Below the pieces are notes generated by a model. That model worked only from the letters and a program-made list of their open reading frames with translations, made no database searches and was not told the origin of the DNA. This document shows, one piece after another, positions 23,915 to 35,840 of a DNA stretch of 64,000 bases (the stretch's first letter is position 1; the number at the start of each line of letters is the position of its first letter). The translations under genes and the position numbers were made by a program. The stretch covers positions 943,886 to 1,007,885 of the forward strand of contig NZ_CP116808.1 of the NCBI RefSeq assembly GCF_028464065.1. The letters run 5' to 3'. This DNA is from Saprospira sp. CCB-QB6. Its GTDB lineage: Bacteria > Bacteroidota > Bacteroidia > Chitinophagales > Saprospiraceae.

Positions 23915-25147
23915 CTATTTCTTCTCTGGCATTTCTTCCATAAATTCCACCTTCTTTTCATGAGTGATATTCATGGTCGGGGTCCCTTTGTAATCTGTAA
24001 TTTTCCCCTTTACACAAATTTGCTTGCCATAGAGTTCCGTCTCTGGCGAATAAGAAAAATGTTTGATGTCTTTGCCCCAGATCGTTACAGAAAAAATCTG
24101 GTTGGGGAATTTTGTGTCCAGATTGATAAAGACAGAGCCAGATTTCGTCTTTTTGGTCGATACGACCGTGCCGCAGACGCAGGCCTTTTGATTCATAAAA
24201 ACCTGTGCATCGGCTGTGCTGATGCAATCTTTGGGCAATTCTTCATTGCTAAGAGGTGGAACATCGGCCAAGCGGCCTTCCGTCGTTTTTTCCCAGCTAG
24301 AAGGGTCCTCCATGGCTTCTAGGCGTTTTTCTTCCTCTTCGGGCAAATTGCTAAAGAAATCCAAGCCCGTTTGGGCCTCCACCTCATCCACCGAAACCGC
24401 GTAACTGATAGTTGGGTTGTTGCAGCTGCCATTTTTCATGATAAAGGCGATGGCTTTAGGCTGCTCAGCCTCTAGGTCCAAAACGACCTTAAAAAAGGCT
24501 TCGGGAATGCTCACTTTATTGGGGCCTTGCGTAATTTGTGGCAAGCCCTCCTTCAAAATAGGGCCCGTAATGACCAACATCGAGCGTTTGTGAGAAAAGA
24601 CGGTGCCTCGAACCCAACGCTCCAAGTCGGCCCAGCCCTCTCGGTTAAATTCGGGCAATTGGGGACTCATATTAGAGTAATAATAGGACTCACTAATGGC
24701 CGTTTTAGACCAGCGAAAATCGGCAGAGGGGGCCAAATGCCCGCGATCATAACCACTATACCAATAATCGGATTTTACCGCCGTTCCTGTACTGACCAAC
24801 TCATCTTCTCTAAAATCATTGGTTCGGCTAAGATTGCCTTCCATCACCGCAGGCGGGATAATATGGGCCACCCAAGCGGCCTGTTCATGGGCTTCTGAGT
24901 AATTCAAAATCATGGCGGCATGCTCAACCAATTCCCCTTCTACGCCATCTTTTGGCAGCCCCACTTTCTTCAAATCGGCTCGAATCTTCTGCAGGCGCAA
25001 CGCTTCAATTTGCTGAATGAGGGCTGTTTTCTGTTCGTCTAGGCTTTGCTTTTGAGCTTCTAGTTTTTGTAATTCTTGACCAAGGTCTTGGCTCCAAAGG
25101 CAAGCAGGTAGGGCCAAAACGAAGGCCCATAAAATAAATTGGCGCAT
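23915..25147 (-). CDS. secreted DNA/RNA non-specific endonuclease (NucA/Serratia family) with C-terminal OB-fold domain
   Basis: It has a signal peptide and the GYDRGHLAPSADF active-site motif (DRGH), and then N..SPQ...N..W..LE. The C-terminal CVCGTVVSTKK...ITDYKGTP resembles an OB fold. Confidence 0.7.
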   Translation of the reverse strand: MRQFILWAFVLALPACLWSQDLGQELQKLEAQKQSLDEQKTALIQQIEALRLQKIRADLKKVGLPKDGVEGELVEHAAMILNYSEAHEQAAWVAHIIPPAVMEGNLSRTNDFREDELVSTGTAVKSDYWYSGYDRGHLAPSADFRWSKTAISESYYYSNMSPQLPEFNREGWADLERWVRGTVFSHKRSMLVITGPILKEGLPQITQGPNKVSIPEAFFKVVLDLEAEQPKAIAFIMKNGSCNNPTISYAVSVDEVEAQTGLDFFSNLPEEEEKRLEAMEDPSSWEKTTEGRLADVPPLSNEELPKDCISTADAQVFMNQKACVCGTVVSTKKTKSGSVFINLDTKFPNQIFSVTIWGKDIKHFSYSPETELYGKQICVKGKITDYKGTPTMNITHEKKVEFMEEMPEKK

Positions 25148-25251: not shown

Positions 25252-25500
25252 TTTTGGGGCCCGCGGCCGCCCTTCCTGGGGCGGCCGCCGCTATGCTGCG
25301 GGGCTCGCTATTCGCTCGGCCCTTCGCCAGCAAGCTGGCTCGGTCTGGCCTTTGGCCACCCCTCCGCAGCGCTGGGCCCTCAGCGGCCCTTCAGGCCTTC
25401 GCAGAAAAGCGGTATTCGTCGCTGCGCTCCTCATGCTTTGATATATCCCCGCCCACCCGCCCCTCTACGGGATTCCTTAAGGAATCCCTCAGGGAAGCGG
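25252..25500. repeat. REP/MITE-like element (forward, divergent variant carrying GGGATTCCTTAAGGAATCCC palindrome)
   Basis: It starts TTTTTTGGGGCCCGCGGCC. Its reverse-complement relative is at 48306-48655. Confidence 0.65.
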
Positions 25501-25638
25501 GCGGAACTTTTTAGACTTTAGCCATGAGATAGAAATAAAATTCCCTTTTTTTGCTTAAAAAACTCGCTAATGTCATCAAAAAGCGATAATATGAGCTACA
25601 AATTAAGACCTAGGCCTTAAAAAGCCCATTTTATCCTT

Positions 25639-28600
25639 TTGCCGATGAAGCTAATAGAACAAAAGCGCCTGCATTTTAAGCAGGGGAATTCTGATAAAGT
25701 ATATGAAGTAGACCTTTGCGAATTAGAAGCAGGGGCCTTTCTAGTAAATTTCCGTTATGGAAAAACAGGCGGTCCCCTACGAGAGGGAAGCAAAACGCCT
25801 ACGCCTGTAGATGAAACCAAGGCCCGTAATCTGTACAATAAATTGCTACAGGATAAAATGAAAAAGGGCTATTTAGATGTCTCTGAAAAGAGTCAGGCTA
25901 AGCAAGTTGCAGCTATTGAGCCTCCAGATAAATCTCTAGAAGGAGAAAAAGCACAAGCGGCTTGGATACTATACCATTTGCAGCTCGCTCAACTAGATCC
26001 AGAGGCCCAAAAGGCCCGCAACTGGAAACTCTCTAGAGTTGCTTGGCGAGCGGCCAGCCTTAACATAAAAGCCGCTGGACCATATTGCTGGGCCCTTTTT
26101 GAGCAAAATCATCGAGGTAAATCGGTAAATGATTTAGAACTCTATAGTTTGCTTTGGGCTACAGCTCAACTTGATACAGAAATAGAGGATCTCAGCAACC
26201 TATTAACTTTTTGGAGAAGCAAGAAAAAAGCGCCTACAGCTAAAAAGCTAGCTCCTTTTGTTTATTGGGAATTAGCAAACGCGGCAGGACAGCAGGCTTT
26301 GCTCGAAGAAGAACTGCCCAAACTACCTGAACTTTGGCAAAAGGCTTTGGACCGTAAAGATATGGATGCCTTAGCCTATCAGTTGCGTAAAGCTAAGGGA
26401 GATAAAAGTATGGAGGAGGCTTTTGCCATGCTCTATTTATTGTCTCCAGCCATGCCTTATTGTCGCAAGGCGCTTTTGGAAGTCATTTGCGAAATGGAGT
26501 TTCGTCCCAATAGCTTCCGCCTCCTGCGTCGCCTCTTTAAAATGGCTACTTTCCGCAAAGATGCACAGTTCTGGGGCGCCTTGGCTTATCGCTTTGAAAA
26601 GGCGAGTCCCCAATATAAAATGCCCCGCCGCAGCAATCAATATGTTTGGGTAAGCTATAACCGCATGCGACCAAAAGATGAGTTGAAAAAAGAGGATAGT
26701 CGTTTGGCCTTCTCCAATTTGACCAAAAAGTATTTTAGTGACTACATGCGTAGAGAGCTAGATCAATTGGGCCAAAAAGGAAACATTGCCTATGTAGCTA
26801 TGGCCACTAGCATCCTTCTTCAATATGATGATCATCGTGATGGGCGCACAGACCGTAGAGAAAAAAGTTGGCGCTTTGACAATAATAAACAACGTTGGAT
26901 TGCAACGGTATACCATTACCCCAGCTATTCTAGAGAATTGATCTTCAACGAAATTCTCTATGCAAACAGTCAGCGATATCTGTACGCTCCAATGAAACAA
27001 GAATGGGTTTATGGAGATAATTATGATCCTGATCAGCCCTTACCCGCAGCACTTTCAGAAACTAAATATGCTGATCTTTGGCAACAAGAACCCAAAGCCT
27101 TTTTGCACCTAATGGCAGAGGCCAAAAGTCAAAAGGTATTGGAGTTTGCCCATACGGCATTTATGGCGCATCCCGAGGCCAAGAGCTTGCAAAATCGCTT
27201 GGGATTAGCTTACTGGAAACAGTTATTGAGCCGTACATATTTGCCTATACAGACCTGGGCCCTACAGAAAATTGTAGCCACTTATGAGCAATCGGGTAAA
27301 CCCACTTCCATTCTGCTTTACCTTTTGGACCATGATTATGCAAAAGCTAGAGAACAGGCTTTGGCTTGGCTCCAAGCCGATTTCTTCGATTATTTTGCCG
27401 ATCTAGACTTGGTCTATAACCTCTTGTTGCATGAACGCCAAGATTTAAGAGCTTGGGCGCAAGAGGCCCTAGGACGTATTGTAGAGGTATATGAACCCGC
27501 TAAACGTCAAGCGCTTTTAGGTCGCTTATTAGGTTTCTTGTTGCGCTCGGGCCAAGATCGCCAGATCTTGATGACAGAGGTGGAAACGCTACTAACAACT
27601 CACTTCAAGGCCGAATTAGAACAACTCAGCTTAGATTTAATCGGGAAGTTTTTACGCTTGCCTTTACCTCAGCAACAAGCTTTCGGTTTGCAGTTGCTTA
27701 AAGGCCATGCCGCAGAAGCAATGCAAATTCCCTTTGAAGATATTCAATACCTTTTTGGTAAAACAGCCGATTATTGGCAATATGGCCTAGAATTACTCCA
27801 AAATTCTTCAGAACAAAAGCTCTTGCAAGAAGGAGAATTTCTCTTGTCTCTGCTAGAACATAAGGAAGAAGATGTTCGCTTAGGCACTCGAGAGATTTTA
27901 GTCCCACTCTATGCCCAAAATCAAGCTTTTGCTGTAGATCAAATGCAACAACTCTTGCGCAGATTGATCCGCAAAGAAAAAATTGAGGGCTTGCATGCAC
28001 TTTTTGCCGATATGCTAACTACCGAGCTAGAAGGATGTTTAGTTGAAGTGGACCGGAAGTTTATTTTCCGCCTACTTAATGCAAAATATGCCCCTGCACA
28101 AGAATTAGCCGCCCTTTTAATTGATCGTTATATCCCTTATGACTCTTTGTCTGTGGCCAATACCGTTCGCTTAGCCAATCACGAAATTGTAGCTGTGCGC
28201 GAACTTGCCTGGAAAATGTTTAAGGAGCAAAAAGATCGTATGCGCTACGAAAGAGAAGAGGCTTTACGTCTACTAGATGTAGATTGGGCCGACTCTCGAC
28301 AGTTTGCCTTTACTTTCTTTGGCGAAGCTTATACCGCAGAAGATTGGAGCCCCAGCTTGATGGTGGGCATTTGCGATTCAGTGCGCGAAGATGTACAGCA
28401 GTTTGGTCGCCAACTCATCACTCGCTTCTTTGAGGAAGAAGATGGTCCCATGTATTTGGAGCAATTGAGTCAGCACCCCCGCCCAGAACTACAACTTTAT
28501 GCAACCAACTATCTGGAGCGTTTCGCTGCGGGACATCCTGAGCGGATTCTATCGCTACGCGATTATTTCTATACGGTTTTGGCCCAAGTAAATAAAGGCC

Positions 28601-28815
28601 GAATTGCCAAAGATCGCATCTGGAGCTTTTTAGCAAAAGAAGCTAAAGCCTCTTTTGAAGTAGCACAATTCCTCTCTGATTTAGCTACTTTTGTCTCGGC
28701 CACAGCAGCTATTGGCGATAAAGAACAGGCCGTTATTGTGCTACGCGATTTGCAGGACCAATACCCCTTGCTCGAACAGCCTATTGCGATTCACGATTAT
28801 CCCACTCAATCTTAG
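25639..28815 (+). CDS. WGR-domain protein with long alpha-helical C-terminal region (MolR/YehI-like, WGR + DUF4132-type architecture)
   Basis: The N-terminus NSDKVYEVDLCELEAGAFLVNFRYGKTGG...DETKARNLYNKLLQDKMKKGY matches the WGR fold, with YGKTG in place of WGRIG. It is followed by about 950 aa of helical repeats. Confidence 0.65.
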   Translation: MPMKLIEQKRLHFKQGNSDKVYEVDLCELEAGAFLVNFRYGKTGGPLREGSKTPTPVDETKARNLYNKLLQDKMKKGYLDVSEKSQAKQVAAIEPPDKSLEGEKAQAAWILYHLQLAQLDPEAQKARNWKLSRVAWRAASLNIKAAGPYCWALFEQNHRGKSVNDLELYSLLWATAQLDTEIEDLSNLLTFWRSKKKAPTAKKLAPFVYWELANAAGQQALLEEELPKLPELWQKALDRKDMDALAYQLRKAKGDKSMEEAFAMLYLLSPAMPYCRKALLEVICEMEFRPNSFRLLRRLFKMATFRKDAQFWGALAYRFEKASPQYKMPRRSNQYVWVSYNRMRPKDELKKEDSRLAFSNLTKKYFSDYMRRELDQLGQKGNIAYVAMATSILLQYDDHRDGRTDRREKSWRFDNNKQRWIATVYHYPSYSRELIFNEILYANSQRYLYAPMKQEWVYGDNYDPDQPLPAALSETKYADLWQQEPKAFLHLMAEAKSQKVLEFAHTAFMAHPEAKSLQNRLGLAYWKQLLSRTYLPIQTWALQKIVATYEQSGKPTSILLYLLDHDYAKAREQALAWLQADFFDYFADLDLVYNLLLHERQDLRAWAQEALGRIVEVYEPAKRQALLGRLLGFLLRSGQDRQILMTEVETLLTTHFKAELEQLSLDLIGKFLRLPLPQQQAFGLQLLKGHAAEAMQIPFEDIQYLFGKTADYWQYGLELLQNSSEQKLLQEGEFLLSLLEHKEEDVRLGTREILVPLYAQNQAFAVDQMQQLLRRLIRKEKIEGLHALFADMLTTELEGCLVEVDRKFIFRLLNAKYAPAQELAALLIDRYIPYDSLSVANTVRLANHEIVAVRELAWKMFKEQKDRMRYEREEALRLLDVDWADSRQFAFTFFGEAYTAEDWSPSLMVGICDSVREDVQQFGRQLITRFFEEEDGPMYLEQLSQHPRPELQLYATNYLERFAAGHPERILSLRDYFYTVLAQVNKGRIAKDRIWSFLAKEAKASFEVAQFLSDLATFVSATAAIGDKEQAVIVLRDLQDQYPLLEQPIAIHDYPTQS

Positions 28816-28826
28816 TCTAGCTCAAT

Positions 28827-30494
28827 ATGTTATTTAATTATAAGTATGGAGGAACTTCCTCCGTGAAAAATAAAGCTGGGCAAACGGCGATGTCTTTTGC
28901 CCCTGATAGTTTGCGCGAGCCTACTTTTTTTGTGGGCCAATTGCACAAGAAAATTGCCTTTAGAGAAGCTATCTCTGCCTTGAATGCTGTAGTAGTTTCT
29001 GATCTTCGCTTCAAACCTCGCGATAAATCCGCCTATTTGGCCTGGGCCAAAGAACAAGAAGAGGTTTGGCTAGCCCAATACCTCGGCGAAATTGCTGGAG
29101 ATGAAGCCAATATCAAAAAACGAATCGAAGATATTTCTGTGGAATTAGCAGGGGTAGAAGAGCAGGAACGAGGCGTAATGCAGCATTTCTACAAAAAACA
29201 AAGAGAGTATTTTAATTACCTCTATAAAAAGGATTTTGATGCTTGGATCGTCCTGGATCCCGTTATCACTACCCATCCCGATAGCATTTTCTTTGAGTGC
29301 TTTAGCCAAGATGAATCTACTTATGGTAAGCTCAGCTGTGGCTACAATGTCTTTAAGAATATTGACGAGTTTTCTTGCGGAACAACCAATATTGACTACT
29401 CCGCAGCCCTCTATAATGAGTTTCAAAAGATTCGAAACTATAAGGAAACCGATTTTCGAGTAGATCCTTCTGGCTTCGAAATCCAAACAGAAGACCAAGA
29501 TTTATATAAAGAGGTCAAAATTGACCTGCCCGAAAGCTGGGTCCGCGGCTTCCTTCAAGTGAGCTCCGCCATGACGATGCCCCTCATTCGCTTTGACCTG
29601 CATCCCATGGATATTCATAGCATCTGCCAGCTTTTGCGCCGCTTCAAAGAAACACATGGCCCCCGCTCTTTGCGCTTTCAACTTCGCCCTGGGCAGCCCG
29701 TTAAGGTGGTGGTAGAACCTTGGAATAAAGAAATTATCTGCCGCCGCTCTATTTATCATGGGCCAAAAGCAGAGGAGGTCCGCATTTGGGGCCGCCGCCG
29801 CTTACTCATTTTAGAGCGCCTGATTCCACAAGCCAAAAAATTTACAGTCAGCTTCCTCGGTTCTGGTTTGCCTTCTTTCTATGAGGCCCAACTAGAGGGA
29901 GATATGGTCTTTACTTTGGGCCTTTCTGGCTGGACCGATAACGATTGGTCCAGAGCTGGTAACTTTGATCTGCTCGCCCCTCGCTTAGAGGTAGACGATT
30001 GGACCAAACAAACCGTTTTCGAGGCACTCAAAACCACTTATTTCGAGTCGGTAGATAGCCTCGCAGAACGCCTGGAATTAGGCACAGATATCGTCAGCGC
30101 AGCCTTGCAAGCCTATACGCAAGCAGGCCGAGTGATCTTTGATCCTACCCTGGGCGTTTACCGCCTCAGAGAATTGCATCGCGAACCTCTCGATATGAAA
30201 CTGCTCCGCTTTGCTTCACCGCAAGAGGAAAAAGCCAACAAAATTTTGGACAAAAACCGCCTCAGCAATTTATCCGCAGAGGCACAGCAAAATGGCCAAA
30301 CTCGACTGTCCGCACAAATTAAAGGAGAGCAACGCAACTACCAATGCCAACTCCTTATCGATGCCGATGACCGCATGGTCCAAGCCGAATGCAATTGCAA
30401 TCATTTTCAAATGAATAAATTGCGCAAAGGCCCCTGCGAACACATCTTAGCCACTCGTATGGCCCATAATCGCAAAACAGGAAAACTGATCTAG
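28827..30494 (+). CDS. SWIM zinc-finger protein (YehQ-like)
   Basis: The C-terminus is CNCNHFQMNKLRKGPCEHIL, which is CxCx(n)CxH (SWIM) at nt 30390-30443. It starts 12 nt after the WGR gene, so the two form an operon. Confidence 0.7.
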   Translation: MLFNYKYGGTSSVKNKAGQTAMSFAPDSLREPTFFVGQLHKKIAFREAISALNAVVVSDLRFKPRDKSAYLAWAKEQEEVWLAQYLGEIAGDEANIKKRIEDISVELAGVEEQERGVMQHFYKKQREYFNYLYKKDFDAWIVLDPVITTHPDSIFFECFSQDESTYGKLSCGYNVFKNIDEFSCGTTNIDYSAALYNEFQKIRNYKETDFRVDPSGFEIQTEDQDLYKEVKIDLPESWVRGFLQVSSAMTMPLIRFDLHPMDIHSICQLLRRFKETHGPRSLRFQLRPGQPVKVVVEPWNKEIICRRSIYHGPKAEEVRIWGRRRLLILERLIPQAKKFTVSFLGSGLPSFYEAQLEGDMVFTLGLSGWTDNDWSRAGNFDLLAPRLEVDDWTKQTVFEALKTTYFESVDSLAERLELGTDIVSAALQAYTQAGRVIFDPTLGVYRLRELHREPLDMKLLRFASPQEEKANKILDKNRLSNLSAEAQQNGQTRLSAQIKGEQRNYQCQLLIDADDRMVQAECNCNHFQMNKLRKGPCEHILATRMAHNRKTGKLI

Positions 30495-30497
30495 CGA

Positions 30498-30645
30498 TTT
30501 TTTTGGGGCCTCCGCAGCAAAGCTGCGGCGCTACGTTTCGGGGCTCGCTGCTCGCTCGGCCCTTCGGCGGCTTTGCCGCCTCGGTCTGGCCTGCGGCCAC
30601 CCCTCCACATCGCTAGGCCTGCGGCGGCTTCGCCGCCTGTCTACC
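30498..30645. repeat. REP/MITE-like element (forward, type 2) separating SWIM gene from RT module
   Basis: It starts TTTTTTGGGGCCTCCGCAGCAAAGCTGCGGCGCTACG and ends CCACATCGCTAGGCCTGCGG. Confidence 0.75.
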
Positions 30646-30704
30646 GCAAAAAGGGCCAAAGCTTCACTATTTTGATAATTTTTTGAAAAAATTTAAATAA
30701 AAAC

Positions 30705-30733
30705 TTGACAAGCTGCTAAAGAATATCTATAAT
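30705..30733 (+). promoter_or_regulatory. perfect sigma70-like promoter (TTGACA-17bp-TATAAT)
   Basis: TTGACA at 30705-30710 and TATAAT at 30728-30733 are exactly 17 bp apart, upstream of the structured region and the RT gene. Confidence 0.5.
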
Positions 30734-30739
30734 TGTAAC

Positions 30740-31110
30740 AGACAAATGGGGATGGCAAGCATCTCTATATAGATATTGAAAAGAAGGATCAAGAGAAGAC
30801 AAAGTCTTGCAAAAAGAGCGCTGTTTCGGCGTTCAAGCGATATTACTCTTCACTGCTCACTAAGGAAGAATCTTTATGATGCGAACCGTCGTAGGTGCCC
30901 CTACTATGCGCCCTATTCGGTTTCGAGTCGTAGACTCTATAGGGCGCATAGTAGGGGCACCTACGACGGTTCGCTGGAGTTGATTCTCTTAGTTCTATGA
31001 TTGTACGAAGTAAATCTTCTCTCCTTCTTTTTTCTTTTGCAGCTACTTTCAATTTTGGACCAACTGGGCTTCTGCCTTAGTTCTCCCAAATTGAAAGTAG
31101 TTTTTTTTTG
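30740..31110 (+). ncRNA. candidate retron-type non-coding RNA (msr/msd-like) upstream of RT
   Basis: A perfect 36-bp inverted repeat (30881-30916 / 30939-30974) carries an inner 5-bp palindrome in its 22-nt loop. A second 13-bp perfect stem (31043-31055 / 31088-31100) is followed by T9, immediately 5' of the RT start. No credible ORF is present. Confidence 0.45.
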
Positions 31111-31126
31111 TCTCAATCTGCTCCCT

Positions 31127-32698
31127 ATGTCTGATCATCGAATGACCCGTCAACAGATTTATGACCGTATCCGTCAAACGTCTAAAGAGGAATACATTTT
31201 AGAAGAAATGAAACGCCTTGGCTTTTGGGATACTTCCGAAGAAGCTCCAAAAATATCTGAGGAGCTGATCCAAAAGAAAGGAGCCCTCCGCAGAGAGCTC
31301 CGCGAGCTGATGGAGAAGCAACGCATGTTTCGAGATAAAGAACGCATGCTAGCCGAAATGCGCAAAAAACGCATGGCCGATGCTCTCGCCCGTAGAGAAG
31401 AGACCAAGGAACGCCGTAAGGCGGAAAAAGAAGCCCGTGCTAAAGCTTGGCAAGAAAAGAAAGAACGAAGCATTGTCTTTTTAGGTAAGGATTATTCTGC
31501 TGGCTTGAGTGAAGAAGAAGCTGACCTAGAAAAATTAGCCGCTTTAAATCTCCCTGCATTTAAGGATATTAAGGAGCTGGCAGATGCTATGGAGATTTCT
31601 GTAGGGCGTTTGCGCTACCTTTGCTTTCAACGAAAGCTGTCTACAGTATCGCATTATGAACGCTTTTATTTAGCCAAGAAAACAGGGGGCAAACGTCTGA
31701 TTTCAGCCCCTCGTCCAATGCTTAAAACTGCACAATATTGGCTACTAGAAAATGTACTTTCTCGCTTGGAGATGCATGAAGCCGCCCATGGTTTTGTGCC
31801 GCAGCGCTCTATTGTGAGTAATGCTAAATTGCATGAGAAAAAAGAGGTCGTCATCAATATGGACCTCAAAGACTTTTTTCCTACCGTAACCTACCCTCGA
31901 GTGAAGGGGATGTTTAAGGGCTTGGGCTATTCTGAGCAACAGGCAATTATTTTTGCGCTATTGACCACAGAACCTGAGGTGGACCAAGTAGAAATAGATG
32001 GGCAATTGTATTATGCCCAAAAAGGAGAACGCTATTTACCACAGGGCGCCCCCACTAGTCCCGCAATCACGAACTGGCTTTGCCGCCGCATGGACCGCCG
32101 TTTTGAAGGTGTAGCGAAAAAACTAGGTTGGACCTATAGCCGCTATGCCGATGACCTAAGCTTCTCTGCTCAGGATACGAGCAATATTAGCCGCATTATT
32201 TGGCAGGCACAGCAGATTATCCAAGATGAAGGCTTTGTGATTCACCCCAAAAAGCTCAAAATTATGCGCAAAGGCCGCCGCCAAGAGGTAACTGGCCTTA
32301 CCGTAAATGAGCAAGTAGCCGTAGATCGCAAAAGCTTGAAGAAGTTTAGAGCCTGTTTGCATACCATAGACACTAAAGGCTATCAAGCAGCGGAATGGGG
32401 CCAAGGCTTTATTTTGGCCAGCATTAAGGGCTTTGCGAATTATGTTCGTATGGTCCAAGCCGATAAAGGCCAAGCCCTTTGCGAACAAGTAAATCGCATT
32501 TTGGCCAAAGAAGAAAATAAGCAAGCTTGGAAGGCCTATTTTGCTCAGTCTAGCACTAAGAAATATGCTTATAAAGAGCAAAAGCAACAAGTTACAGCAG
32601 AAGATACAGCTACTTTGGGTAGTTCTGGCTTAGCAGAATCTCTTCATCCCATCGACCCACAACAAAAGGATGAGGAGCAATGGTGGAGCCTTTGGTAG
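31127..32698 (+). CDS. retron-type reverse transcriptase with basic coiled-coil N-terminal extension
   Basis: It has RLISAP (motif 1), HGFVPQRSIVSNAKLH (the retron NAxxH, nt 31820-31834), INMDLKDFFPTV, SRYADDLSFS (YADD, nt 32144-32155) and RRQEVTGLTVN (retron VTG, nt 32288-32296). The N-terminal roughly 120 aa are K/R/E-rich. Confidence 0.8.
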   Translation: MSDHRMTRQQIYDRIRQTSKEEYILEEMKRLGFWDTSEEAPKISEELIQKKGALRRELRELMEKQRMFRDKERMLAEMRKKRMADALARREETKERRKAEKEARAKAWQEKKERSIVFLGKDYSAGLSEEEADLEKLAALNLPAFKDIKELADAMEISVGRLRYLCFQRKLSTVSHYERFYLAKKTGGKRLISAPRPMLKTAQYWLLENVLSRLEMHEAAHGFVPQRSIVSNAKLHEKKEVVINMDLKDFFPTVTYPRVKGMFKGLGYSEQQAIIFALLTTEPEVDQVEIDGQLYYAQKGERYLPQGAPTSPAITNWLCRRMDRRFEGVAKKLGWTYSRYADDLSFSAQDTSNISRIIWQAQQIIQDEGFVIHPKKLKIMRKGRRQEVTGLTVNEQVAVDRKSLKKFRACLHTIDTKGYQAAEWGQGFILASIKGFANYVRMVQADKGQALCEQVNRILAKEENKQAWKAYFAQSSTKKYAYKEQKQQVTAEDTATLGSSGLAESLHPIDPQQKDEEQWWSLW

Positions 32699-32711
32699 AC
32701 TATCTAATCAG

Positions 32712-32745
32712 AAAAGCCCCCGCAGTCATTGCGGGGGCTTTTTAT
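32712..32745 (+). terminator. rho-independent terminator after RT gene
   Basis: GCCCCCGCA-GTCAT-TGCGGGGGC is followed by TTTTT. Confidence 0.75.
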
Positions 32746-32756
32746 TGGACCAAAAG

Positions 32757-32900
32757 CAGCCTGGCCTAGCGATGTGGAGGGGTGGCCGAAGGCCAGACCA
32801 AGGCGGCAAAGGCCGCCGCAGGGCCGAGCGAGCAGCGAGCCCCGCAACGTAGCGGCGGCCAACTGAGGCCAAAGGCCGAACTGGCCGCAGGCCCCAAAAT
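32757..32900. repeat. REP/MITE-like element (reverse)
   Basis: It has GGCCTAGCGATGTGGAGGGG and ends GCAGGCCCCAAAA. Confidence 0.75.
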
Positions 32901-35840
32901 CTAGCTAAAGTGATTTTGTTTTTTGCGCCAATAAAAACCCAAAGCCAACAGCAAGAGAAGAAGGGTTCCTATACCCCAGATATAGATAGACCAGTTTGTT
33001 TTTTGGGGTAAATCAACAGCTTGGCTGTCTCCGCTGAGGACCCAGGCGGCCCAGAAAAAGGGTTGGGCAGCTACTTCCTTTTGATCAACTAATTCTAAGT
33101 AGCGGACTTGAGCATTTTGTAGGGCCTTATCTTTAGTTTGGCCCGCCTCTAAATTAGAATAAAAGAGCTCCATCAATAAGCGACTACTTTCATCATTGAC
33201 CTCCCAAAGCGTGCTGAGCGTGCTGGCGGCACCAGCATAACGGAAACCAAGGCCAAGACTTTGCGCCCCTTCTCCAGCTTGGTAACGGCCAGCAGCGGTT
33301 TGGCAGGCAGAAAGCACCACTAAATCAGCAGATAAATTTAGACCAGGGAGTTCATAAGCCAATAATAAATCATCGAGTAGACTATCTTGGGTTTCGCTAA
33401 AGAAGAGAGCCGAATAGCTAGGGGCCATAGGGTCTGTGATGGCGTGCATGGCCAAGTGAATAAAGCGGGCATGGGGAGCTAATTCTCTAAACTGCTGTTC
33501 GTTGGCAGCCCCACTGCGCAGAAACTGTCCCTTAAAGTATTTTTCCAGATAATTGAGTTCGGCCTCAGCTCCAGCCAAGGGCTGAAGTTGTTTGCGAGCT
33601 TGGGTCCAATCTAAGGCTTGACGATCCACTGCAGTTCCATGGCCTTCATAAGTTGGCGCCATAGCTAAAAAACCTTGAGCTTGTCGTTTTGGGCTATTTT
33701 GCAGATAGAAATTGGCGGCATAGAGGTAACTTATTGCGTACTGCTTGATGAGGTAATTTAGGCGGCTAAAAGCTTCTTCTTCAGGACTTATAAGCAGGCT
33801 ACTAAAAGCCAGCTGGGCCAATTCTGCATGAGGAGAAATGAGTAAATCATGCTTAGGCGCTTGGGGCATAAGTTGCTGATAAAGAGCATGAGCAGCTTGG
33901 ATAAAGTCCATTTTGAACTGTTTACTTTCTTCTTTTGGCCGTTGCAGGAGTCGCTGAAATTTTTGCAGTTTTTTACGTAGTGGTTGAGTGGTTCCTAGGC
34001 TAAATAATTGAATTTCGCCTGCTTCTAAAAGAAAGCAATAGCTATTTTTTGGGCCCATAAAATAAGCCAATAGACTTTGTTGATTTTGAGCTAATTTCTC
34101 CTGCAAAGCGGCTAAATCCAATTCCTCTAATTCTTCTTGCCAGCTACTATAACTGGGATATTTCTGAGCCAATTGAGCGAGCAAATCTTCCAAGGCTTGG
34201 CGTTTTTGGAAAAGAATTGCTTGCATTTTTTGTGCTCGCAAGCTATCTGATTTGCGTTCTGCACGGCTAAATTGCGCTTGATAATAGCTAATATCTTGGC
34301 GCAGGCTACGCTCTTCGGCCAAAAGCTCCGCCGAGATATTGCCTAATTGCTGGGCCTCTTTATTGCGCAAAGAACTGAGCAACCAACTGCCCTTAGCCAG
34401 CTCAATTTCGATAAAAGCTTGCTGAATATAAATGGGGTCGGCCTCCGCTTTTTCCAGAGCAATTGCGGTTTCTAGAAAAGACTCATAAATTTTTTCAGTT
34501 TGTTCTCTTAAAGCTGCTTTCCCCCCTTTAGAGCCCAATTGCTTTTCTAATTCCTTGGCCAAGCTAATTGCCGTTTGGCAACTTTTATATTGCTCTAGCA
34601 AAGGGGCATTGATTTGTTTTTGCGCTCGATAAATTCCCCATAAAATAGCCAAACCTTCTTGGCCTTTCAGCTGGCTAAGTCCTTCTTGTTGCCCCAAGCC
34701 CGCCGTTTGGTAGCGAAGAGCCTCATCAAAATAACGAAGCGCCAAGGCTGCCGTATCTAATGCCAAGGCGGCCTCTCCCAAAGCAATATAAATTTCTTGA
34801 TTTTTGGCGAGCTCTCGAAAGGCAGATTTTCGTCTTCGAGCATCTGCTAAAGAAGCCGCTAAGTCTTGAATACCCTCAAGATCCTTATTCTTTTTTAGCT
34901 TGTGGATATAGGCTTTAAACAAAGGAAATTGAGCGTGTCCGCCTCGATTTATTTCCTCTGTTAAAGGTAATTTAAAAGCATTTTGATCCAACAAGGATAA
35001 ATAGGCATTGGTCTCTAAAGCATAAAAACTTTTGGTCATCCCTAAGTCCTCAAATTGCTTTGCAGCCTCTAGCAAGTAAGGTAAGGCCTGTTTTTCTTGC
35101 CCCAATTTATAATAACAAATACCTCTACTCGCCAAGTTTTTTGCTCGAACATGAGGAAAAACTTTCTCCCCTTCCAAGGCGGCCAAAGCCTCTAAAGTAC
35201 GCTCATAATTTCCCTTCTGGCGATAGATTTGTGCCATGAGCAAATAGGCCATTGTTTTCGCATGAGGCTGTTGGAGTAAAGCCAATTTTTTGGCCCACTT
35301 TAAAGCTGTTTCTGGTTCATTGGCTAAGCCAAAATGAAAACTAGCCCCCTCTCTATATAAATCTAGCTTCAACAACTCATGATAGTTCTCCTCATTCTTT
35401 TCTAACCAAAGTAAAGCTTTGTCTAAGCGCTCCTTTTGTGCTGGCAGTTCAAGGTTTTCTAAATACCCTAAGTAATGATAGGCTAAATAATAATAAGGCA
35501 AGCGCTCTGCTGCTTGTTCTTCGGCCCAACTAAGTTGATCCTGAACCAAGGCTGTTAATTCTTCTACATAAGGCCTTTTATAAGCGCCCAAATAAGCATA
35601 AGCTAAGCCCACTAGCGCCAAATCACCCGCCTCTTGGTACTTACTCAATCGCCAAGATGAATCTACAGCTTGATTATAAGTAAAACTAGCTTCATAGTAG
35701 CGCATCATGAGCTGCTTTTGCACTCCTATCTTGGTAGTTTGAGCCAAACTGTCTTGATAAATGGCCCAATTAAGAGCTGATTGGGCAAAGAGGGGCAGGC
35801 AAAAGAATAACCCGCAAAGGCTATAGATATAGTTTCGCAT
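32901..35840 (-). CDS. TPR-repeat CHAT-domain protein (caspase-like protease), signal peptide and C-terminal TM anchor
   Basis: The C-terminal CHAT motifs are HLAMHAI (His) and VVLSACQTAAG (Cys). The N-terminal half has TPR repeats. The signal peptide is MRNYIYSLCGLFFCLPLFAQ. The C-terminal TM is IYIWGIGTLLLLLLALGFYW. Confidence 0.75.
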   Translation of the reverse strand: MRNYIYSLCGLFFCLPLFAQSALNWAIYQDSLAQTTKIGVQKQLMMRYYEASFTYNQAVDSSWRLSKYQEAGDLALVGLAYAYLGAYKRPYVEELTALVQDQLSWAEEQAAERLPYYYLAYHYLGYLENLELPAQKERLDKALLWLEKNEENYHELLKLDLYREGASFHFGLANEPETALKWAKKLALLQQPHAKTMAYLLMAQIYRQKGNYERTLEALAALEGEKVFPHVRAKNLASRGICYYKLGQEKQALPYLLEAAKQFEDLGMTKSFYALETNAYLSLLDQNAFKLPLTEEINRGGHAQFPLFKAYIHKLKKNKDLEGIQDLAASLADARRRKSAFRELAKNQEIYIALGEAALALDTAALALRYFDEALRYQTAGLGQQEGLSQLKGQEGLAILWGIYRAQKQINAPLLEQYKSCQTAISLAKELEKQLGSKGGKAALREQTEKIYESFLETAIALEKAEADPIYIQQAFIEIELAKGSWLLSSLRNKEAQQLGNISAELLAEERSLRQDISYYQAQFSRAERKSDSLRAQKMQAILFQKRQALEDLLAQLAQKYPSYSSWQEELEELDLAALQEKLAQNQQSLLAYFMGPKNSYCFLLEAGEIQLFSLGTTQPLRKKLQKFQRLLQRPKEESKQFKMDFIQAAHALYQQLMPQAPKHDLLISPHAELAQLAFSSLLISPEEEAFSRLNYLIKQYAISYLYAANFYLQNSPKRQAQGFLAMAPTYEGHGTAVDRQALDWTQARKQLQPLAGAEAELNYLEKYFKGQFLRSGAANEQQFRELAPHARFIHLAMHAITDPMAPSYSALFFSETQDSLLDDLLLAYELPGLNLSADLVVLSACQTAAGRYQAGEGAQSLGLGFRYAGAASTLSTLWEVNDESSRLLMELFYSNLEAGQTKDKALQNAQVRYLELVDQKEVAAQPFFWAAWVLSGDSQAVDLPQKTNWSIYIWGIGTLLLLLLALGFYWRKKQNHFS

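Follow-up and report, generated by a model that had tools for sequence, protein, structure and literature searches.

A very probably intact type XIII retron, with a proposed cycle of msDNA synthesis, in the chromosome of a Saprospira species

RESULTS

We analysed a stretch of 64,000 nucleotides (nt) from Saprospira sp. CCB-QB6 (assembly GCF_028464065.1, contig NZ_CP116808.1, positions 943,886-1,007,885 of the forward strand), hereafter the window. A preliminary description of this DNA had pointed to a block of four elements at 25.6-32.7 kb: a gene for a protein with a WGR domain, a gene for a protein with a SWIM zinc finger, a promoter followed by a perfect 36-bp inverted repeat and a gene for a reverse transcriptase (RT); all four are present there. 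The locus is very likely an intact, canonical retron of type XIII residing in the chromosome of a member of Bacteroidota, and we propose for it a cycle in which multicopy single-stranded DNA (msDNA) is synthesized, as well as a tripartite complex. Its three protein-coding genes (lengths in amino acids, aa) are as follows.

25639-28815 (+): accessory protein, WGR-like with HEAT/ARM repeats, 1058 aa, of the Mestre cluster 216 type
28827-30494 (+): SWIM partner protein, 555 aa, starting 11 nt past the stop codon of the WGR gene
31127-32698 (+): retron reverse transcriptase, 523 aa, with an N-terminal extension of ~170 aa and, at the C-terminal end of a linker, the sequence DEEQWWSLW

Classification of the locus

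Type XIII was defined by Mestre et al. (2020; PMC7736814) as the combination of an RT of clade 10, a DEDE/winged-helix/SWIM (CxCx12CxH) protein and a WGR-like HEAT/ARM protein. In the same work the SWIM protein (cluster 114 type) is described by the motif Dx7[D]x4Ex30-32Dx37E, followed by a winged helix and a C-terminal SWIM finger CxCx12CxH; it is usually preceded by the WGR-like HEAT/ARM-repeat protein, a type-specific non-coding RNA (ncRNA) is present, and the experimentally known members are Mx162, Mx65, Sa163 and Ne144 (PMC7736814).

The type XIII models of PADLOC matched all three window proteins essentially end to end: WGR_XIII the 1058-aa protein (E=0, 1019 bits, model positions 1-972 of 973), SWIM_XIII the 555-aa protein (1.8e-232) and RT_XIII the 523-aa RT (1.5e-188, 625.6 bits, profile positions 7-457 of 469). 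The runner-up RT model, RT_other, scored 311 bits, half of the RT_XIII score; the assignment of the RT to clade 10 rests on the RT_XIII match. Every part of the published definition was found, namely the RT_XIII profile match, the DEDE/winged-helix/SWIM protein and the WGR-HEAT/ARM protein, in co-oriented genes conserved across genomes. The general marks of a retron were found as well: NAxxH and VTG motifs around YxDD, and an adjacent msr-msd ncRNA on the RT strand with an a1/a2 helix.

Such an architecture is already known, having been published in 2020. As WGR and SWIM partners are the defining trait of type XIII, the locus is not a new discovery, and the earlier statement that a WGR-SWIM retron partnership had not been described is overturned by the definition of Mestre et al. 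(PMC7736814) and by the existence of PADLOC hidden Markov models for it. Standard defence-annotation tools would label the locus Retron XIII, which leaves little weight to a claim of discovery. The family has thousands of members, and a recent survey places type XIII among the most abundant retron types and those with the broadest taxonomic spread.

Conservation of the partner genes

Scanning one genome per species, we collected 80 homologous loci from Bacteroidota, Myxococcota, Cyanobacteria, Planctomycetota, Verrucomicrobiota, Acidobacteriota, Proteobacteria and Firmicutes. A SWIM homologue on the RT strand was detected by tblastn in 68 of the 80 loci (65 upstream and 3 downstream of the RT), and 49 loci had in addition a WGR match on the same strand. 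Of the 12 loci lacking SWIM, nine have less than 6 kb of flank on at least one side; the other three, all cyanobacterial, are the only ones in which SWIM is missing although 6 kb or more is available on each side. No match to the locus was found in Escherichia coli genomes, in keeping with a host that is not enteric. The proposal that the WGR and SWIM proteins are the partners of a retron is thus borne out by their co-occurrence with homologous RTs, and nothing in the neighbourhoods or in the grouping of the RT contradicted it.

The reverse transcriptase

The open reading frame (ORF) of the RT extends over 31001-32698 (+); we took ATG 31127 as the start because the PADLOC profile begins there and because the RT product of Saprospira grandis DSM 2844 has a matching length (524 aa). 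The resulting 523-aa protein differs in length from the 524 aa claimed in the preliminary description, while the motifs named there stand: NAKLH (residues 232-236), YADD (340-343, in the context RYADD) and VTG (388-390, in the context EVTG) were read from the translation and are invariant in the alignment of homologues.

A comparison with retron profiles was made in several ways, with PADLOC giving RT_XIII as the best model and type XIII as the class. Pfam RVT_1 was detected with E=5e-24. The closest relatives of solved structure are retron RTs, Ec86 (5e-39) and then Ec67, Kva2, Ec83 and Ec78, with a group II intron RT structure at 9e-6. In NCBIfam, values of 1e-61 to 1e-64 were obtained for retron families, as against 1.6e-18 for the family of group II intron RTs and 6e-8 for Drt2. 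Together with the RT_XIII match and the covariation of the msr-msd RNA described below, these relationships uphold the view that the locus is a retron. The window RT and that of S. grandis str. Lewin share 95% identity.

The N-terminal extension of ~170 aa is conserved in a family that is nearly always accompanied by SWIM and WGR partners, and neither the N- nor the C-terminal extension matches a known domain. At the other end of the protein (residues ~470-523, window positions 32560-32695), a variable low-complexity linker is followed by the conserved acidic DEEQWWSLW at the extreme C-terminus. A C-terminus of the form WWx-hydrophobic-hydrophobic occurs in 92 of 120 close homologues, and the WW motif looks like a candidate docking peptide. 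The WW tail marks one RT sub-clade and is absent from many SWIM-linked RTs; being confined to that sub-clade, it could not be linked statistically to the SWIM partner, and the co-occurrence of the two is uninformative. The RTs of three homologous loci (L005, L007 and L028) end instead in a hydrophobic, transmembrane-like tail.

The msr-msd RNA

Between the SWIM and RT genes we recognized the following elements of an ncRNA.

30705-30733 (+): predicted ncRNA promoter TTGACA-17-TATAAT, 12 of 12 consensus positions
30779-30799 (+): a1 repeat, 5' arm of the closing helix, pairing with 31015-31031 in 10 bp and 7 bp around a 4-nt bulge
30806-30810 (+): conserved CUUGC, with G30809 as the predicted branching (priming) guanosine
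30811-30879 (+): msr core, matched by covariance model R1 (66.4 bits, E=9e-14)
30816-30834 (+): putative RT-recognition hairpin of the msr, stem GAGCGCUG/CGGCGUUC, loop UUU
30855-31010 (+): msd, template for an msDNA predicted at ~130-150 nt
30859-30872/30982-30993 (+): lower stem of the msd
30881-30916/30939-30974 (+): upper stem of the msd, a perfect 36-bp inverted repeat
30974-30983 and 31004-31010 (+): invariant msd blocks, CUGGAGUUGA and UACGAAG, respectively
31015-31031 (+): a2 repeat, 3' arm of the closing helix, pairing with a1
31043-31109 (+): long hairpin and T9 run separating a2 from the RT start, resembling a terminator or attenuator

The promoter is of sigma-70 consensus, scores as the best site in 25-33.2 kb and is kept in Lewin save for a single -10 base. 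The predicted folding energy of region 30775-31040 is -130 kcal/mol, with z=-12.3 relative to dinucleotide shuffles. The same ncRNA architecture was seen shortly upstream of the RT in loci of four phyla, including those of Archangium and Hyalangium, with CUUGC, a GUUUCG-type msr loop, UCAC, CUGGAGUUGA and UACGAAG as common blocks. For 22 sequences from four phyla, Myxococcota included, RNAalifold gave 32 consensus pairs, 25 of them with compensatory changes; in the msr hairpin such changes affect six of eight pairs. Model R1, which describes the msr core, had 67 matches across the window and 55 loci, all of them on the RT strand; each match that was compared in coordinates with its RT stands upstream of that gene, and the window has a single match. 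In its predicted fold the window ncRNA is of canonical msr-msd retron layout.

The CTTGC sequence is present in all 22 aligned ncRNAs. Its CUU pairs with AAG at 31008-31010 and thereby extends the closing helix, leaving G30809, directly past this extension, to face G31007. In Ec86 the branching G stands directly past the a1/a2 helix and is followed by C (UUA-G-C); G30809 is presumably the equivalent of this residue and, by this analogy, likely to be the branching guanosine.

The hairpin preceding the T9 run (31101-31109) is 58 nt long. In Lewin it is kept with a compensatory change (AACU/AGUU to AGCU/AGCU), and counterparts of hairpin and T-run were found in several relatives from Bacteroidota (loci L006, L042, L050 and L062); hairpins of this kind are seen in Flavobacterium, Bacteroides and Chitinophagaceae. 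No such hairpin was seen in the myxobacterial loci, in which a2 abuts the RT start. Possibly this element attenuates read-through and so sets the ratio of ncRNA to RT.

A scan of the region with Rfam gave no intron or other RNA family at the gathering score; sub-threshold matches (miRNA precursors on the 36-bp hairpin, Leu and Thr leaders on the RT terminator) were dismissed as artefacts generic to hairpins.

Variable msd stems and tandem units

In an alignment of the ncRNA from three Saprospira strains, 21 of 276 positions vary, and 18 of the 21 fall within the 72 nt of the upper-stem arms, in two patches (30887-30890 and 30906-30910, with their partner positions). Each strain retains a perfect 36-bp stem, different from those of the others, in spite of changes at nine paired positions, all of which are compensated. 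We compared the stem at 30881-30916/30939-30974 of the window with that at 9844-9937 of L081 and with its homologue in L087; outside the upper-stem arms the ncRNA hardly varies. Loci L084 and L085 have identical sequences, so that their comparison is uninformative on msd variability. The changes hint that the sequence of the msDNA duplex itself is under selection.

In locus L021 (2225-3095) three msr-msd units follow one another in tandem; msr and lower stem are the same in all of them, but each has a different upper stem, fully compensated. The msr model had three matches each in L012 and L083 and two each in L001, L009, L017, L019 and L027. These tandem units sit upstream of one RT and resemble an array of alternative msDNA templates. 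In the literature searched we found no description of either the stem variability or the ncRNA arrays.

The SWIM protein and its predicted clamp fold

Pfam SWIM was detected at residues 505-542 of the 555-aa partner protein. The parts of the protein, numbered by residue, are given below.

~34-366: predicted PCNA-like clamp fold
68-135: helical-hairpin insertion
~391-447: winged helix
479-550: SWIM zinc finger

The acidic motif reads D144-x7-D152-x4-E157-x32-D190-x38-E229 and the zinc motif C522-x-C524-x12-C537-x-H539; the residues of both, DEDE and CxCx12CxH, are invariant in homologues from Bacteroidota to Firmicutes. The protein is 99% identical to its copy in S. grandis DSM 2844. No solved structure matched it by sequence. 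A first AlphaFold2 (AF2) model, built from 40 close sequences, was poor in the N-terminal half; with a distant Lachnospiraceae clade added to the alignment, the mean predicted local distance difference test score (pLDDT) was 75.6 and the predicted template modelling score (pTM) 0.71. In this model residues ~34-366 are predicted to make up an entire PCNA-like subunit of two domains, interrupted at 68-135 by a helical hairpin; the predicted structure has a two-domain beta-alpha-beta-beta-beta repeat fold and can be superposed on a PCNA subunit. The invariant DEDE residues sit in the model on strands of domain 1, with no recognizable transposase fold around them.

The model suggests for the SWIM protein a clamp subunit of PCNA type, to which winged helix and SWIM finger are joined, and a clamp-like shape would point to binding of DNA or of the msDNA duplex rather than the action of a classical toxin. 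Neither a clamp fold for the type XIII SWIM protein nor a link between clamps and retrons is mentioned in the literature searched, which does not prove their absence. One could speculate, with rather low confidence, that the type XIII SWIM/DEDE effector may be a PCNA/9-1-1-like clamp. The retron would then consist of RT, DNA clamp and a WGR sensor of DNA ends on a long msDNA hairpin, with no conventional toxin being restrained, and the compensated variable patches of the msDNA stem would determine specificity or serve as decoys, with an arms race as the selective force; relatives would have diversified these patches into tandem ncRNA arrays served by one RT.

The WGR protein

Pfam WGR was found at residues 11-83 of the 1058-aa protein, together with a weak HEAT match; Pfam DUF4132 was not detected, and no solved structure matched the protein by sequence. 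In poly(ADP-ribose) polymerases (PARPs) the WGR domain is a sensor of DNA breaks. The proposed homology of the WGR and SWIM proteins to the E. coli MolR/YehI-YehQ type found no support: the WGR protein against YehI of E. coli K-12 gave BLASTP E=0.25 and the SWIM protein against YehQ of the same strain E=0.15, neither of them significant, the hhalign probability was 0.5%, and DUF4132 is lacking.

Flanking genes and repeats

The surroundings of the retron contain the following features.

23915-25147 (-): Endonuclease_NS (non-specific DNA/RNA nuclease) with a C-terminal oligonucleotide-binding (OB) fold, divergent from the WGR gene
30498-30645 (+): copy of a GC-rich dispersed repeat resembling repetitive extragenic palindromic (REP) elements, probably outside the system
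32716-32746 (+): intrinsic terminator past the RT gene, GCCCCCGCA-GTCAT-TGCGGGGGC followed by the T-run TTTTTATT
32763-32857: GC-rich dispersed repeat, inverted copy after the RT gene
32901-35840 (-): CHAT-domain protein, 979 aa, convergent to the RT gene

The preliminary description had set the convergent CHAT gene apart as unrelated and had placed a terminator and a repeat between it and the RT gene, which agrees with our data. The CHAT gene was considered as an effector and rejected: it is absent from all 80 loci, has no relevant PADLOC match and is missing downstream of the RT in both Lewin and DSM 2844. The Endonuclease_NS gene was rejected on similar grounds (no co-occurrence in the 80 loci, no relevant PADLOC match); it is syntenic in both S. 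grandis genomes and unlinked to the RT elsewhere. Downstream of the RT, Lewin and DSM 2844 carry genes other than those of the window, and synteny with Lewin ends at the GC-rich repeat directly past the RT; the Lewin sequence beyond this breakpoint matches window positions 16717-13266, inverted.

The repeat (REP-like or resembling a miniature inverted-repeat transposable element, ~100-150 nt) is very abundant in intergenic regions, with further matches at, among others, 20722, 36991, 37506, 41043, 58488 and 61727. The copy at 30498-30645 is also present in Lewin, with variation. The two copies that bracket the ncRNA-RT module are inverted and 92-96% complementary. We considered them as ends of a mobile unit; the arrangement is probably incidental, given the many other sites in the window and the fact that one copy is the breakpoint of a rearrangement relative to Lewin. 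A small ORF at 25254-25514 had no family match and is probably not a gene, since the corresponding stretch of Lewin holds dispersed-repeat sequence.

Two homologous loci differ in layout. In the close relative L082 (9603-11780) a gene for a McrB-like AAA_5 protein directly follows the RT gene. In the Lachnospiraceae locus L070 (5461-11464) the HEAT, SWIM and RT genes overlap and leave no intergenic ncRNA; the ncRNA of that sub-clade must therefore sit elsewhere.

DISCUSSION

Proposed mode of action

The following cycle is built from the features described above and from established retron biology. The dedicated promoter at 30705-30733 would drive transcription of the msr-msd ncRNA, and the hairpin with the T9 run (31043-31109) would probably end most transcripts ahead of the RT gene, so that ncRNA would exceed RT mRNA. 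The RNA would be closed by the a1/a2 repeats; the RT would recognize the conserved msr hairpin and prime from the 2'-OH of G30809 in CUUGC. Copying of the msd would yield an msDNA of ~130-150 nt with a long hairpin, consisting of the perfect 36-bp upper stem and the lower stem. By analogy with characterized retron types, the particle of RT, msDNA and RNA may then join the SWIM and WGR-HEAT/ARM proteins in a tripartite complex, in which the msDNA would restrain the partners for as long as no insult, phage infection for instance, disturbs it.

Several considerations weigh against this account of a canonical, defensive type XIII retron. The covariance model R1 was made in this analysis and is distinct from the type XIII model published by Mestre et al. 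The branching G and the ends of the msDNA are predictions, as are transcription, msDNA synthesis, the complex and any phenotype. With a REP-like repeat and a separate promoter standing between SWIM gene and ncRNA, it is uncertain whether all parts are transcribed together. In the literature searched we found neither anti-phage activity nor a mechanism for type XIII, which does not prove that none has been reported. Finally, vertical inheritance, conserved synteny and ~60% identity of the SWIM protein are less typical of fast-turnover defence islands and make the defensive part of the last step uncertain.

Alternative explanations

The readings that dispute the class of the system or the identity of its partners have little to recommend them. 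That the RT belongs to another class (group II intron, diversity-generating retroelement, abortive infection or defence-associated RT), with a REP element or terminator as the explanation of the hairpin, has practically no chance of being correct: the group II intron and Drt2 matches of NCBIfam are weak and to be expected for any RT, but they are far surpassed by those to retron families and to RT_XIII, no intron RNA family appeared at the Rfam threshold, and the covariation is of retron type, with the ncRNA at a fixed place beside the RT on its strand. We regard as highly improbable that the system is a novel, retron-like one with a hitherto undescribed partnership; the sole point in favour is that the partners lack a classical effector domain, while the architecture equals the published definition (PMC7736814), the dedicated PADLOC models match at full length and the family is large. 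Somewhat less remote, yet still improbable, is the idea, raised in the preliminary description, that the extensions of the RT form a fused effector and that WGR and SWIM are unrelated neighbours. The conserved N-terminal extension and the conserved C-terminal motif would fit this idea; still, neither extension matches a known domain, the linker with its short terminal motif resembles a docking peptide rather than an enzyme, 68 of the 80 loci have SWIM on the RT strand, the N-terminal extension is itself conserved in a family nearly always accompanied by the SWIM and WGR partners, and co-evolution of RTs and accessory proteins was reported by Mestre et al. (PMC7736814).

More serious, though we give it a rather low probability, is the explanation that the locus is a type XIII retron turned into a vertically inherited, domesticated module of DNA transactions with no abortive-infection toxin or antitoxin, in which the PCNA-like/winged-helix/SWIM and WGR proteins would act on the hairpin msDNA or be recruited through it. 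The upstream gene order of the window (LysE, LysM, methyltransferase, Endonuclease_NS, WGR, SWIM, RT) is that of Lewin, and Endonuclease_NS, WGR, SWIM and RT follow one another in the same order in DSM 2844. Compared with Lewin, the system has diverged to much the same degree as its flanks (nucleotide identity of 88% for the system and 85% for the upstream flank). Mestre et al. reported moderate vertical inheritance of type XIII and a correlation with 16S, and suggested non-defence functions (PMC7736814). The SWIM protein is unusually conserved, with ~60% identity across phyla, its model predicts a full PCNA-like fold, and scans with Pfam, PADLOC and NCBIfam revealed no recognizable toxin domain in any component. 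Against domestication, the retron types characterized in the literature found, as far as the accessible text of those sources goes, all act in phage defence; the variable msd stems are more like the signature of an arms race; and PADLOC and DefenseFinder both list type XIII as a defence system.

An intact type XIII retron with WGR and SWIM partners remains our preferred reading of the locus. The type is still of interest, as its function and mechanism are apparently undemonstrated in the literature searched and its partner proteins appear to have no solved structure. Leads for experiments are the confidently predicted PCNA-like fold of the SWIM partner, the C-terminal WW peptide of the RT, and the compensated variable msd stems along with the tandem ncRNA arrays.

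Comparison with known systems

The yeh genes of E. coli, yehF/H/I (WGR, DUF4132) and yehLMPQ (MoxR-VWA-SWIM), have only WGR and SWIM, at the level of Pfam, in common with the window; the yeh locus has neither RT nor ncRNA, whereas the window system is devoid of MoxR and VWA genes and of DUF4132. The likeness of the SWIM protein to the PCNA, 9-1-1 and beta sliding clamps is one of predicted fold only, at a sequence identity of 6-12%. In contrast to these clamps, the window protein has a helical hairpin of ~70 aa inserted in domain 1, an invariant acidic cluster on the strands of domain 1, and a winged helix and SWIM finger fused to the clamp-like domain.

Ec86 (Eco1, type II-A), the best-characterized retron, resembles the window system in the fold and motifs of its RT, in an msr hairpin with a U-rich loop of GUUUCG type and in the tripartite logic of RT, msDNA and partner protein, a logic that for the window is predicted from the DNA. 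Its RT, at 320 aa, lacks the N- and C-terminal extensions of the window RT, its effector is a nucleoside deoxyribosyltransferase-like protein with no WGR, SWIM or clamp-like partner, and its msDNA is 86 nt long, in comparison with the ~130-150 nt predicted here.

Closest are the type XIII retrons Mx162 (Retron-Mxa1), the earliest retron to be discovered, Mx65 (Mxa2), Sa163 (Sau1) and Ne144 (Nex2), which have the same three proteins, an RT likewise provided with an N-terminal extension and the same gene order, WGR-SWIM-ncRNA-RT. The window ncRNA shares sequence blocks and covarying helices with loci of Archangium, Hyalangium and Myxococcaceae, the RTs of which are 48-52% identical to that of the window. 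The last element of the DEDE motif is spaced by x38 in the window, as opposed to x37 in the type XIII definition. The window system differs from the four known members in its host, which belongs to Bacteroidota, in a consensus promoter of its own for the ncRNA and a terminator-like hairpin ahead of the RT, and in the REP-like repeat inserted between the SWIM gene and the ncRNA.

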